Positions 1-15,684 are shown, numbered from the stretch's first letter. The stretch is 64,000 bases of DNA from Bacillales bacterium (GCA_029006735.1 JAQXGN010000022.1:9640-73639); one strand, 5' to 3'. Numbers and translations are program-made. Notes: generated by a model not told the origin, from the letters alone.

Positions 1-3000
1 TGAAGCCCCTTTATATGTTTCATAAGTAATACTATTAAAATAGTTTTCATCATCATAACTTCCAATACTATTAACAATATAACCTTCTTTTACAGTAATA
101 TTATCTTTTATGATTTCATCATTTAAAACAGGTTTTTCAATCGAATACTTTGTTGAATTAGTATTAGAAACTATAACATCTGATGCGTTATAAATAGTAT
201 CTACTGAACCTTTTTTAACATATTTATAATTGATATCATATTCAATTACTTTAAATCTTCCATAGATAGTTAAATCTTCTAGATATCCTGATAAAGAAGT
301 GATTTCACTTTCTTCATTATTAATTTCTAAATACCATCCAATAAATTCATATCCTTCTGCAGAACCATCAATAAGTTCAAAATAATTTTTAACAGTATAT
401 GTAGTATTGTTATTAATTTTAAAGTTATTTCCTGTTCTTTCTTCCCAATCATAGTTTACAATCTTGTAAGTGATATTATAAGTATGAACCTTATATACTG
501 CATTTAACACAATATCTGATATGTCTTGCATTGTTGTTCCATCAATGACAGATATTCTAGTTAATTCACCAATAACCCAATAAACAAAGTCATAACCAGG
601 TTTACTTGCGTCAGCTAAAGTAATCTTATCCTTGACTGTAAATGTACTTGGGTTATTTGGATTATTCTCACCACCATTTAAATTGTAAGTAATTTTATAG
701 TGGATAATATCCCAAATTGCATTGAGTGTAACTGTTTTTTTATTATCACCACAATCATATGTCCAATTACCATTTTGATCTAATAATTCTCCATTATAAT
801 ACCATCCAACAAATTCATATCCTCTTAATGTTGGTTGGCTTAATGAATAAGGTTGATCAAATGTAACAACAAATGATGATACGTTACTACCTTCACCAGA
901 ATTAAATTCTAATGTATATTGTTTAGCAGTCCAAGATGCTTTTAACTCATAATCTCTATGTGAACCAGCTTTAATCACACTAATAGGATATCCATCATCT
1001 TTCCATCCATTAAATACATAACCATCTCTTGAAGGATTACTTAAATTAATACTATTTGATTCAATTGTATATGTGATTGATGAAGGATAAGGTTTTGTAA
1101 CTATAGTTGATCCAAGAGCTTCACCATATTCAAAACTAATTGTATATGTGATTGGCTCAAGAGTTACAGTTACTATCTTATTACCATATTCATTTTCTAA
1201 TCTTTGAATTGAATATGATTTAAAATTATAGCCTAGTTTTGTTGCTTGATAATTATCATAGTCAATAACATCTTCTACTATATATGTAGTTGGTGCATTA
1301 TTACTTACTTCAGTTAAACTTATTCCACTTGTACTCTTATATTCATAAGTAATTTTATAAGTAATTGGTGTCATTGAAGCTGTTACAACAATATCTTTAT
1401 ATGTTGAAGTTGTATTGTTTTTGTCCCAATTAGAGAAAGCATAACCTGAAGAAGTAATATAATATTCATTAAATCTGACTTCATTTTCTACAGTAAATTC
1501 AGTTGGTAAAGATGATAAATCAACTTTTAAAGTAATATCTTTTCCACTACTACTTAATACTTTATATGTAATTGTATAAGTGAGTAAATTCATATTGATT
1601 GTAACATCAAGATTTTCAAAATATCCTTCAGTTGAAGAAATTGACCAAGAACCAAATTCATAGCCATTAATTGAAATAACTCGACCAGAGAAATATACTT
1701 TATTCTCTGCTGTATAAGTTGTTGGTAAACTTGATAAATTTGCACTTGTTGTAATATCTTTTCCACTACTACTTAATACTTTATATGTAATTGTATAAGT
1801 AATAGGCTCAAGAGTTACTGTTACTATCTTATCACCATATTCATTTTCTAATTTTTGAATTGAATATGATTTAAAATTATATCCTTGCTTTGTAACTATG
1901 TAATCATCATTAACAAAATCAATAACATCTTCTACTATATATGTAGTTGGTGCATTATTACTTACTTCAGTTAAAATTATTCCACTTGTACTCTTATATT
2001 CATAAGTAATTTTATAAGTAATTGGTGTCATTGAAGCTGTTACAACAATATCTTCATATGTTGCAGATGTATTTACTCTATCCCAACCACTAAATGAATA
2101 TCCATCTCGATTCATTGTATAATCTATAAAAACAATTGGATTTTCTACAGTAAAAATAGTTGGAGCAGAAGTTGTCGCATTAGATAAAGTATCACCCTTA
2201 CTATTGACTGCTTTATATGTTACATGATATTCAATGACAGTTAATTTACCTACTACATTAATATCTTCATAGATACCATTTGTAGAAGTAATAGAAGAAT
2301 CATTATATAACCAAGAATTATTTGAATTAAATGAATAACCAGCTTTTGATGCATTTAATTTAGTAAAATCAATTGGATTTTCTACACTAAAGTCGATAGT
2401 AGTTAATCCTTCAACACCATTTAATACACTATTATTTTGATTAACATAAGATAAAGTCGCACGATATACAATAACTTCCATTGTTCCTACTACTTCTAGA
2501 TCATTATATACCGAAGAAGTATTTTCCTTAGACCAAGACTTAAATTCATAGCCATCTAAAGAAGGAGTATATGTAGTAAAGTCAATAGGATTTTCAACCG
2601 TGAATGTATCTCTTATTGTTGTATTATATGTGTAGCCAAATAATATATTACCACTTTGATTAACAACTTTATAACTAACATTATATGTATTAATCGTAAA
2701 GTATGCTTTTACAACGATATCTTCATAAACACCATTTGTATTCTCTATTTCCCAATAACTAAATGAATAGCCATTAACACTAATAGCGTTAGAAACATTG
2801 AAAGTAATTGGGTTAGTGACAGTAAATGTTTCTCTAATACCATTTTTAATAATGTCACCAATACATGCTTTACCTGTCTCTACATTGATTGCTTGATATG
2901 TAACTGTATAGACAATTTCTTCCCAAGAAGCAATGTATTTTCTATTTCCAATACTACCTTGAGCGATTTCCATATGGTCATTTGCAGGTTTACTTGTTCC

Positions 3001-15684: not shown

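Follow-up and report, generated by a model that had tools for sequence, protein, structure and literature searches.

The locus and the giant gene

The window studied here (the whole stretch of DNA that was analysed, 64,000 nt in length) belongs to the genome of a Bacillales bacterium (GCA_029006735.1, JAQXGN010000022.1:9640-73639). Its left end is occupied by a giant gene on the minus strand, which starts with an ATG at position 15684, runs past position 1 and is preceded by two smaller genes, orf840 and orf427. The product of the giant gene is an exported protein from an uncultured, apparently gut-associated Firmicute. It is probably a SipW-dependent matrix or adhesion protein, encoded by the third and enlarged gene of a conserved cassette, in which orf840, orf427 and the giant gene represent genes 1, 2 and 3, respectively. 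This gene context, which an earlier reading of the DNA made from the sequence alone (the sequence-only reading) had missed, is the informative part of the locus. The cassette comprises the following features, in which YY stands for the Tyr-Tyr dipeptide and the arrow for the putative signal-peptide cut.

1-15684, minus strand: giant gene (gene 3 of the cassette), codons 1-5228 of an open reading frame (ORF) of 5,408 codons
15692-15696, minus strand: Shine-Dalgarno sequence AAGGA, 7 nt before the ATG at 15684, read directly in the upstream sequence
15728-17011, minus strand: orf427 (gene 2), signal SFA↓WY, with a YY-rich insertion at residues ~250-365; homologues in related loci
17038-19560, minus strand: orf840 (gene 1), signal TLA↓WY, with a YY-rich extension of ~550 aa; homologues in related loci
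19561-19952, minus strand: A+T-rich intergenic region of 392 nt upstream of orf840, likely the promoter region of the operon

The gaps measure 26 nt between orf840 and orf427 and 43 nt between orf427 and the giant gene, and ribosome-binding sites are present; this spacing suggests that the three genes form an operon. A 10/12 sigma-70-like match lies at 19586-19559, in a scan that performed no better than with shuffled sequences.

Translation of the minus strand from the ATG at 15684 to position 1 yields 5,228 codons with zero stops. The frame is open in tables 1, 4, 11 and 25 alike, which makes the idea of an alternative genetic code uninformative for this gene. At the base composition of the strand a stop is expected every ~11 codons, and the chance of an open frame of 5,228 codons is about 1e-212. 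A protein search recovered the complete product, a protein of 5,408 aa encoded on an 85,670-bp contig (NCBI MDD6302074.1), under the record name ‘MAG: InlB B-repeat-containing protein [Bacillales bacterium]’ (MAG, metagenome-assembled genome); the window thus lacks the final 180 residues and the stop codon, which lie beyond position 1. A gene of at least 5,228 codons, open to the window edge and preceded by a ribosome-binding site, is what the sequence-only reading had proposed, and translation of the whole frame bears it out. The same reading had described the gene as hidden. It is indeed absent from the ORF track, whose only entries in 1-15700 are small ORFs of 96, 78 and 63 aa, but this apparent ‘gene desert’ arises because the ORF lister omits ORFs that run off an end, and the protein had already been named in GenBank.

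The coding signal extends along the whole gene. Its G+C content at the three codon positions is 0.39/0.34/0.12, uniform over five 3-kb pieces and like that of the housekeeping genes of the window, with which its relative synonymous codon usage correlates at r = 0.99. Tandem Repeats Finder detects no tandem DNA repeat in the gene, and the longest direct repeats (198 nt at 89% identity and 134 nt at 85%) are so short and diverged that repeat collapse is unlikely. An independent assembly (Logan, run SRR17418317; locus L014) contains the same three genes, with a called giant gene of 4,567 codons that reaches the contig end. Over the readable 12.2 kb it is 98.5% identical to the window giant at the nucleotide level (166 substitutions) and keeps the frame open; the two protein sequences show three short indels relative to each other, each of them in frame and located in the YY-rich tract described below. 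The Nei-Gojobori proportions of synonymous and nonsynonymous differences between them (pS = 0.032, pN = 0.010, pN/pS = 0.32) indicate purifying selection, somewhat relaxed. A third assembly (run SRR21376905; locus L001) confirms the junctions of orf840, orf427 and the start of the giant gene. The giant gene is thus genuine and intact, its codon usage is native, and purifying selection acts on it.

Anatomy of the giant protein

From its N-terminus to its C-terminus, the giant protein can be divided as follows.

15571-15684, minus strand: signal peptide, residues 1-38, with a basic n-region, a hydrophobic core at 15-36 and a putative SipW-type cut ALA↓YW (A38↓Y39)
9613-15570, minus strand: family core, residues 39 to ~2,024, collinear with the unnamed gene 3 family
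14875-15237, minus strand: BspA-type segment resembling leucine-rich repeats (LRR), residues ~150-270 (sub-threshold LRR_5 match, phmmer, Foldseek)
13975-14604, minus strand: all-beta, sandwich-like region predicted with confidence, residues ~361-570, with a predicted local distance difference test score (pLDDT) of 78-90, the rest of the modelled tile being below 50
11983-12000, minus strand: GSFNNW motif, residues 1229-1234, within the family core (string match)
6091-9612, minus strand: Tyr-Tyr-rich tract, residues ~2,025-3,198 (~1,170 aa), between the ‘VFTY’ module and the Flg_new-like unit
5854-6090, minus strand: ancestral Flg_new-like unit common to the shorter relatives, residues 3199-3277 (hidden Markov model (HMM) of the family C-terminus, independent E-value (i-E) = 6.4e-7)
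1-5505, minus strand: Flg_new / InlB B-repeat array, residues ~3,394-5,228 and on to 5,405 (Pfam, TIGR02543, self-HMM and self-BLAST)

The protein is rich in Tyr (9.9%), Thr (9.3%) and Asn (8.9%) and poor in Cys (0.4%). Its single hydrophobic segment spans residues 15-40; none was found elsewhere in the complete protein, C-terminus included. The C-terminal end reads ...LYVKMRKN, no [LIV]Px[TSA]G motif occurs anywhere in the protein and the last 409 aa consist of Flg_new repeats only, which leaves the C-terminal anchor anticipated by the sequence-only reading without either an LPXTG-like motif or a second hydrophobic segment.

With the Pfam and NCBIfam models, only the C-terminal Listeria-Bacteroides repeats score above the cut-off, whereas the LRR_5 and CBM77 matches stay below it. 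For PF09479 (Flg_new) the match reaches E = 4.6e-66 (219.3 bits vs a cut-off of 27) and for TIGR02543 E = 6.7e-48 (160.8 bits vs 20.95), and the giant is a member of the Listeria-Bacteroides repeat proteins by both models. With an HMM trained on the repeats of the protein itself, 22 strong copies were identified that follow one another without a break over residues 3505-5185, each 67-89 aa long; degenerate copies flank them on both sides and extend out to residue 5405. Self-BLAST reveals the fairly recent duplication of a three-repeat block (4505-4646 vs 4724-4863, 71% identity). At 5,408 aa the protein is longer than the 5,000 aa from which proteins are classed as huge. However, the proteins of this size class in UniProt number >41,000 (PMC11573180), and proteins of 10,000-30,000 aa with the same repeat type are known from gut Clostridia (bioRxiv 10.1101/2023.11.21.568195), so that its earlier placement in the top tier of bacterial proteins was generous.

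Between the ‘VFTY’ module and the repeats lies the YY-rich tract. YY dipeptides are enriched in residues 1801-3250 (44 observed vs 20.4 expected, Poisson p = 4e-6) and a short, degenerate DPNxTYY-like motif recurs in the tract. Comparison of the N-terminal 3,350 aa with themselves, by BLASTP and by permissive phmmer, disclosed no internal repeats, and the label ‘repeat tract’ has therefore been dropped for this part. No homologue of the tract was found outside the giant subfamily, in which the orthologues of loci L008 and L009 have YY-rich counterparts. Much else that the sequence-only reading had described in the protein stands: the N-terminal signal or anchor, the large Y/N/T-rich part before the repeats, the C-terminal Listeria-Bacteroides repeats (~2,000 aa), the BspA-like LRR unit in its place and the GSFNNW module. 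Its Tyr-Tyr repeat tract of ~1,000 aa survives as an enrichment in composition and a short motif, but not as a repeat array.

The LRR-like segment scores 20.2 bits on Pfam LRR_5 at residues 166-254, below the gathering cut-off of 27.7. At the GSFNNW site no Pfam carbohydrate-binding module (CBM) was matched; the orthologue of locus L008 has a weak CBM26 match (E = 0.0027, below the cut-off). A CBM reading of this module and of the CBM77 match was set aside on these sub-threshold scores and is kept as a lead only.

Structure prediction informs a limited part of the protein. AlphaFold2 models of residues 1241-2440, made without an alignment, were unusable (mean pLDDT 30.6), while residues 41-1240, modelled with an 18-sequence family alignment, reached a mean pLDDT of 49 and contain the sandwich-like region listed above. 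The only high-probability Foldseek matches of this model are small LRR proteins (4oju_A, probability 0.98, E = 0.04; 6mlx_C, probability 0.82), the remainder being non-significant matches to tandem sandwiches of the fibronectin type III or immunoglobulin-like kind. A phmmer search of PDB sequences with residues 1-3400 gave no match. The model is weakly consistent with an N-terminal part in which an LRR would be followed by beta-sandwich domains.

A rare unnamed family and the route to giant size

A word-indexed search with residues 1-3400 returned only the giant itself, which reflects a limit of sensitivity, since an exhaustive search did find relatives. Given the 3,265-column family alignment, the word-indexed search returned not even the members of that alignment, and it worked with an alignment of 534 columns; its negatives with long, compositionally biased queries are not to be taken as absence. 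The exhaustive HMMER (phmmer) scan, with residues 41-1240 against 1.8 billion representatives, gave 73 matches, of which the best eleven (P0002-P0012) are 32-38% identical with E = 3.6e-44 to 4e-20. These eleven include eight proteins of 1,035-2,041 aa, and the matches start at the same distance from the N-terminal hydrophobic segment. The weaker matches (E = 2.6e-16 to 3e-8) all fall on residues ~150-270, and the three that were checked (P0013, P0017 and P0020) are all strong BspA-type LRR_5 proteins, which supports the LRR call for this segment despite its sub-threshold Pfam score.

A ten-sequence alignment of the gene 3 family has invariant columns from Met1 to about residue 1976. The profile of the C-terminal ~260 aa of the family splits on the giant: positions 1-49 match residues 1973-2024, where the ‘YSIDSSRR..VFTY’ module of the family maps, and positions 29-93 match residues 3199-3277, while the last domain of the family has no counterpart in the giant with this profile. 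These alignments show residues 1 to ~2,024 to be homologous to, and collinear with, the proteins of a rare and unnamed family whose members come from uncultured Bacilli and Erysipelotrichaceae. The sequence-only reading recognised no match for most of the N-terminal 3,400 aa, a view that has to be given up, since collinearity extends to residue ~2,024 with the family and to ~2,430 with the giant orthologues.

No member of the family carries a name. The short members measure 1,300-2,200 aa, and three of them scanned at full length (P0002, P0007 and P0010) showed no Pfam domain. A scan of GTDB species representatives gave six loci, five of which belong to the gene 3 family (L008-L012). In two of these, L008 and L009 (MAGs labelled ‘uncultured Bacillales bacterium’), gene 3 stays open up to where the fetched DNA ends, for at least 3,575 codons; it is collinear with the window giant as far as residue ~2,430 and then becomes YY-rich, so that at least three species possess a giant gene 3. 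One further gene 3 locus, from the same species as L008, came from the JGI metagenomes. No gene 3 relatives were found in viral contigs or plasmids, and a phage or plasmid origin of the cassette was rejected on this ground.

How did gene 3 reach such a size? As judged from these alignments, the giant consists of the family core, an inserted YY-rich tract of ~1,170 aa and an expansion of the single Flg_new-like unit to 22-27 repeats. Fusion with a separate Flg_new gene is a possible source of the repeat array, suggested by similarity at the level of the repeats only. Relatives carry such genes beside the cassette, encoding Flg_new proteins of 760-1,630 aa with ordinary signal peptides.

Separate Flg_new proteins: L003:9043-13944(-); L004:16767-21536(-); L006:15474-17819; L007:8319-13737(-); L002:16631-18919(-)

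The gene in L006 lies 41 nt after gene 3 on the same strand. Small Ser/Thr-rich, lipoprotein-like ORFs also occur near the cassette in L002, L003 and L004.

A conserved cassette of three genes

In all 11 related loci (L002-L012), gene 3 is directly preceded by a gene 1 (213-245 aa) and a gene 2 (289-375 aa). By homology, gene 1 of these loci corresponds to the first ~290 aa of orf840 and gene 2 to orf427 (E to 5e-36); gene 1 of L008 and L009 is likewise enlarged, at 737-739 aa. The order of the three genes is kept across proteins that are only 25-40% identical and in two different chromosomal settings. The setting in which a pyrimidine-nucleoside phosphorylase gene and a D-Ala-D-Ala carboxypeptidase gene (dacA) accompany the cassette is common to the window, L003, L007 and L010.

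Neither orf840 nor orf427 matches a Pfam or NCBIfam family, and outside the signal peptide genes 1, 2 and 3 showed no homology to one another; an hhalign comparison of the gene 1 and gene 2 profiles matched the signal peptide only, at 81% probability. Residues ~290-840 of orf840 (window 17038-18690) form a YY-rich extension of ~550 aa and residues ~250-365 of orf427 (window ~15917-16264) a YY-rich insertion of ~115 aa, both of which are missing from the short homologues. The same kind of sequence has thus expanded all three cassette proteins in this lineage.

A shared signal-peptide design

Four families of putative substrates, namely the three cassette genes and a ‘gene 0’ that accompanies them in related loci, begin with a basic n-region and an h-region of ~20 residues (20-23), followed by a fixed pattern in the cleavage region. 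Over more than 40 cassette proteins this pattern reads as follows.

Gene 0 (5/5 sequences): TYA↓WY
Gene 1 (11 sequences): (S/T)F(S/G/A)↓WY
Gene 2 (13 sequences): (S/T)FA↓W(F/Y)
Gene 3 (14 sequences): (S/T)(F/Y)(A/G/S)↓(Y/I)W

The sites in the window are TLA↓WY in orf840, SFA↓WY in orf427 and ALA↓YW in the giant. Trp40 of the giant is invariant, and the first residue after the cut is Ile or Leu in a few gene 3 relatives. Among the ORFs of the window, the motif is found on the cassette proteins only. At P2, gene 1 and gene 3 of the window (19474-19560 and 15571-15684) have Leu where all relatives have Phe or Tyr, and this coincides with the lack of a nearby sipW gene.

The site of TasA, TWA↓AF, has aromatic residues at P2 and P2' that hinder E. 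coli LepB, and SipW cuts it in B. subtilis (PMC10269814). Sites such as SFA↓YW, SFA↓WF, SFG↓WY and TYA↓WY follow the same cleavage-region design, and all cassette proteins appear, at the level of sequence, to share a signal that mirrors the cleavage region of TasA.

SipW-type peptidases and their neighbours in related loci

A SipW-like gene of 230-244 aa, whose product matches models of SipW and of the archaeal-type signal peptidase I, is located at most 10 kb upstream of the cassette in 8 of the 11 related loci. For the copy of L009, the match to TIGR02228 reaches 56.2 bits (cut-off 51.85) and that to the SipW model E = 2.4e-21; the other copies score lower, between E = 1e-11 and 8.5e-16. A second, longer SipW-like paralogue (298-400 aa) occurs a few genes further upstream in all five loci where this stretch was examined; a family-model match was obtained for the L009 copy only (E = 2.3e-9), and the L002 copy has none in Pfam. 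The xSM serine motif and the THR[IV] histidine motif of the peptidases of the endoplasmic reticulum (ER) type are kept in all copies, while GDAN..D is present in seven of the eight copies of the first paralogue and in no copy of the second.

The same clusters contain gene 0, which encodes a substrate-like protein of 206-237 aa whose first 28 residues are near-identical between species. Its signal is nearly invariant (MKKRLLISSVLMSAVLACALGTGTYA↓WY) and its mature part is rich in Ala, Thr, Gly and Ser and hypervariable between species. Such a pattern of conservation would be that of a major exposed fibre subunit.

Gene 0: L009:460-1137; L011:212-925; L002:2125-2745; L004:193-831; L006:1949-2641
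McrB-like/DUF2357/sipW cluster: L002:3868-7769; L004:1915-5809; L006:3943-7917; L009:2535-6505; L010:582-4500; L011:1983-5873

In these McrB-like/DUF2357/sipW clusters, 14-29 nt at the end of a DUF2357 (McrC-like) gene are shared with the sipW-like gene, and the DUF2357 gene is itself preceded by one for a protein of 517-533 aa with a McrB-like AAA domain and hydrophobic N-terminal segments. An McrBC-like pair translationally coupled to a signal peptidase and placed between SipW substrates is unexpected; it could be a defence island that landed there by chance or a recruited nucleoside triphosphatase (NTPase).

Comparison with known systems

The closest parallel in layout is the biofilm-matrix operon sipW-bsaA-bsaB-bsaC of C. 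perfringens, in which BsaA and BsaB, two matrix proteins of the TasA type, are accompanied by the larger, secreted BsaC (PMC11580942). Like the related loci, it places a SipW-type gene beside two small and one larger exported protein; the signals of its proteins, like those of the cassette, are presumed to be cut by SipW and are combined with the lack of an LPXTG motif, and the bsa products form extracellular matrix material. Unlike BsaA, BsaB and TasA, to which they have no detectable similarity, the small cassette proteins stand apart, and the gene 3 protein (1,300-5,400 aa) differs from BsaC (~70 kDa) in having no von Willebrand factor A domain. The relatives also differ from sipW-bsaABC in their two SipW paralogues, fourth, pilin-like substrate and McrBC-like pair, and in the window the peptidase gene is not adjacent.

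In the tapA-sipW-tasA system, cleavage by SipW exposes residues that serve as the donor strand in TasA polymerisation (PMC9674648). In most relatives of the cassette, too, an ER-type peptidase gene lies near those of the putative substrates, and the residues after the presumed cut are conserved. The likeness is known from the signal sequences: no sequence homology to TasA or TapA was found, and TasA has 261 aa where the giant has 5,408.

Other large surface proteins resemble the giant in part. The giant clostridial Flg_new proteins share with it the long Listeria-Bacteroides arrays and a very large, exported product, but the window protein is smaller, only its last third consists of repeats, and the N-terminal 3,300 aa come from another family, one without a name. 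BspA-type LRR proteins (LRR_5; 4oju, 6mlx) are resembled by residues ~150-270 both in sequence and in the model; unlike in those proteins, the LRR segment is below the Pfam cut-off and amounts to ~2% of the giant. The Giant1-5 proteins of Apilactobacillus kunkeei are very large, Asn-rich extracellular proteins encoded by consecutive genes, with a signal peptide and no LPXTG (PMC12863079). They resemble the window proteins in coming from Bacilli, in their N-terminal signal and in the lack of LPXTG, and differ in that they are rods of alpha-helical repeats with DUF5776 domains at the C-terminus and have an ordinary Sec/signal peptidase I signal; no homology of the window giant to Giant1-5 was seen.

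Proposed function and alternative explanations

The likeness of this layout to sipW-bsaABC and tapA-sipW-tasA leads us to propose a matrix or adhesion role that involves a SipW cut. The precursor of the giant would be exported by Sec, and a SipW-type peptidase encoded elsewhere in the genome would cut it after Ala38, giving a mature N-terminus that begins with YW. Outside the cell, the giant would act as a matrix or adhesion component together with the products of orf840 and orf427, with the BspA-type LRR and the beta-sandwich core as its binding end and the YY-rich tract and the Flg_new array providing length and reach. We infer cleavage, SipW dependence in this organism, co-assembly and adhesion from the shared signal design and the likeness in layout.

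Several results weigh against this proposal. The 48 kb of the window upstream of the cassette contain neither a sipW-like gene nor a gene 0, and most of the SipW-like copies in the relatives score below curated cut-offs. The P2 residue of the giant is Leu and not aromatic, although P2' is, and orf840 also has Leu at P2. The NCBI HMM for SipW-cognate signal peptides, which we take to be TIGR04088, matched neither the N-termini of the giant, orf427 and orf840 (E <= 10) nor those of genes 1 and 2 (E <= 1) and gene 0 (E <= 5) of the relatives, with the limit that HMMER filters may drop weak matches to short models. The TasA-like signal is thus a resemblance by inspection and not a membership in a database family. 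Similarity of genes 1 and 2 to TasA or camelysin was sought without success in Pfam, NCBIfam and, by profile, PDB, and hhalign against TasA gave probabilities of 0.3% and 1.2%. In the structure model, only ~17% of the 1,200-aa tile attains a pLDDT >=70, and Foldseek with residues 41-1240 found no PDB match at E <= 0.001.

As the foremost alternative, the N-terminal segment could remain uncleaved, as a type II membrane anchor with the aromatic pair as its interfacial belt. The length of the protein would then carry the Flg_new array through and beyond the wall, and the neighbouring SipW would serve other substrates. Such an anchor would explain why the giant has no C-terminal anchor of any kind and one hydrophobic segment only, and it agrees with the long h-region (~20-23 residues), with the lack of sipW in the window and with the Leu at P2 in which the giant and orf840 depart from their relatives; BsaA oligomers, moreover, are reported to appear membrane-anchored before SipW acts (PMC11580942). 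We nevertheless consider it unlikely, as the conservation of small residues at -1 and -3 in more than 40 sequences from four unrelated families is characteristic of a cleavage site and not of a helix end. The pattern furthermore copies the P3-P2' site of TasA, and in most relatives two SipW paralogues lie within the same cluster.

A more ambitious view, quite unlikely in our estimate, would take the cluster of the relatives for an undescribed Gram-positive fibre-assembly system, in which SipW exposes aromatic donor-strand N-termini and the giant is a fibre-borne adhesin. The order of the system would be gene 0 as a pilin-like subunit, two SipW paralogues, the McrB-like NTPase, associated with the membrane, with its DUF2357 partner and translational coupling to sipW, and genes 1-3, and the size of the giant would have been set by the lineage-specific insertion of a YY-rich element that also invaded genes 1 and 2.

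At the other extreme, the giant might be a generic Flg_new adhesin with an ordinary Sec signal, SipW and the upstream genes being incidental companions in a variable island of surface proteins. This seems improbable: the gene 1-2-3 order is kept in 11/11 loci across proteins of 25-40% identity and two chromosomal settings, and the same unusual signal motif is on all cassette proteins and on no other ORF of the window. What speaks for it is that the NCBI pipeline assigned only the name ‘InlB B-repeat-containing protein’, that relatives have further Flg_new proteins with ordinary signals beside the cassette, and that the sipW cluster includes an McrBC-like pair typical of variable islands.

That the gene is an artefact of mis-joined repeats or a decaying pseudogene, as a source in a MAG, a C-terminal third that is repetitive at the protein level and an independent contig readable only to residue 3,318 might suggest, can be excluded for practical purposes by the improbability of the open frame, the codon-position G+C signal along the whole gene, the short and diverged DNA repeats, the agreement of the assemblies from SRR17418317 and SRR21376905, the pN/pS of 0.32 with indels in frame only and the giant orthologues in two other species.

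Surroundings of the cassette and the host

Over the window (1-64000), strand asymmetry is strong, with 10,615 C vs 7,703 G on the plus strand and the majority of genes on the minus strand; the 64 kb yielded neither an Rfam family nor a tRNA gene. Among the neighbouring genes are the following.

27194-28084: Ser/Thr kinase of 296 aa, in a conserved rlmN, PP2C, kinase, rsgA, rpe cluster
38181-50894: carbohydrate block with a major facilitator superfamily transporter, a glycoside hydrolase (GH) family 78 alpha-L-rhamnosidase, a GH3 enzyme and a GH2 enzyme
46455-48468: GHKL histidine kinase and LytTR response regulator pair
53638-58219: glycerol kinase and glycerol-3-phosphate dehydrogenase-like genes

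The Ser/Thr kinase matches Pfam kinase-domain families only, with no PASTA or other extracellular part detected. The carbohydrate block suggests a plant-glycan-degrading lifestyle of the gut type. In a close relative (L003:14150-18574), the cassette lies beside spoIIAA-, spoIIAB- and sigF-like genes, spoVA genes and one gene of the gerA family, which, together with the carboxypeptidase of the window (of the penicillin-binding protein 5 type), points to walled and probably spore-forming Firmicutes.

Significance

The giant ORF had been deposited and automatically named, and very large Flg_new proteins, far larger ones included, are already known. What appears to be new is the placement of the giant in a rare, unnamed cassette with a TasA-like signal design and a linkage to SipW in most relatives, as well as a reconstructed route to its size by one insertion and the expansion of a single terminal repeat. 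No description of the cassette was found in the literature on SipW with Erysipelotrichia or on TasA-like systems. The scanned members of genes 1 and 2 and the short members of gene 3 are without a Pfam family, and those of genes 1 and 2 also without an NCBIfam family. The practical value is modest and lies in a better annotation of MAG proteins and in testable candidate SipW substrates.

For the biology of the family, the giant offers a concrete case of the growth of a giant gene, from an ancestor of ~2,000 aa through one large insertion and a more than 20-fold expansion of a terminal repeat. If the proposed role is correct, the cassette would extend the paradigm of tapA-sipW-tasA and sipW-bsaABC to unrelated substrate families and, in uncultured, apparently gut-associated Bacilli, to a cargo as large as 5,400 aa.

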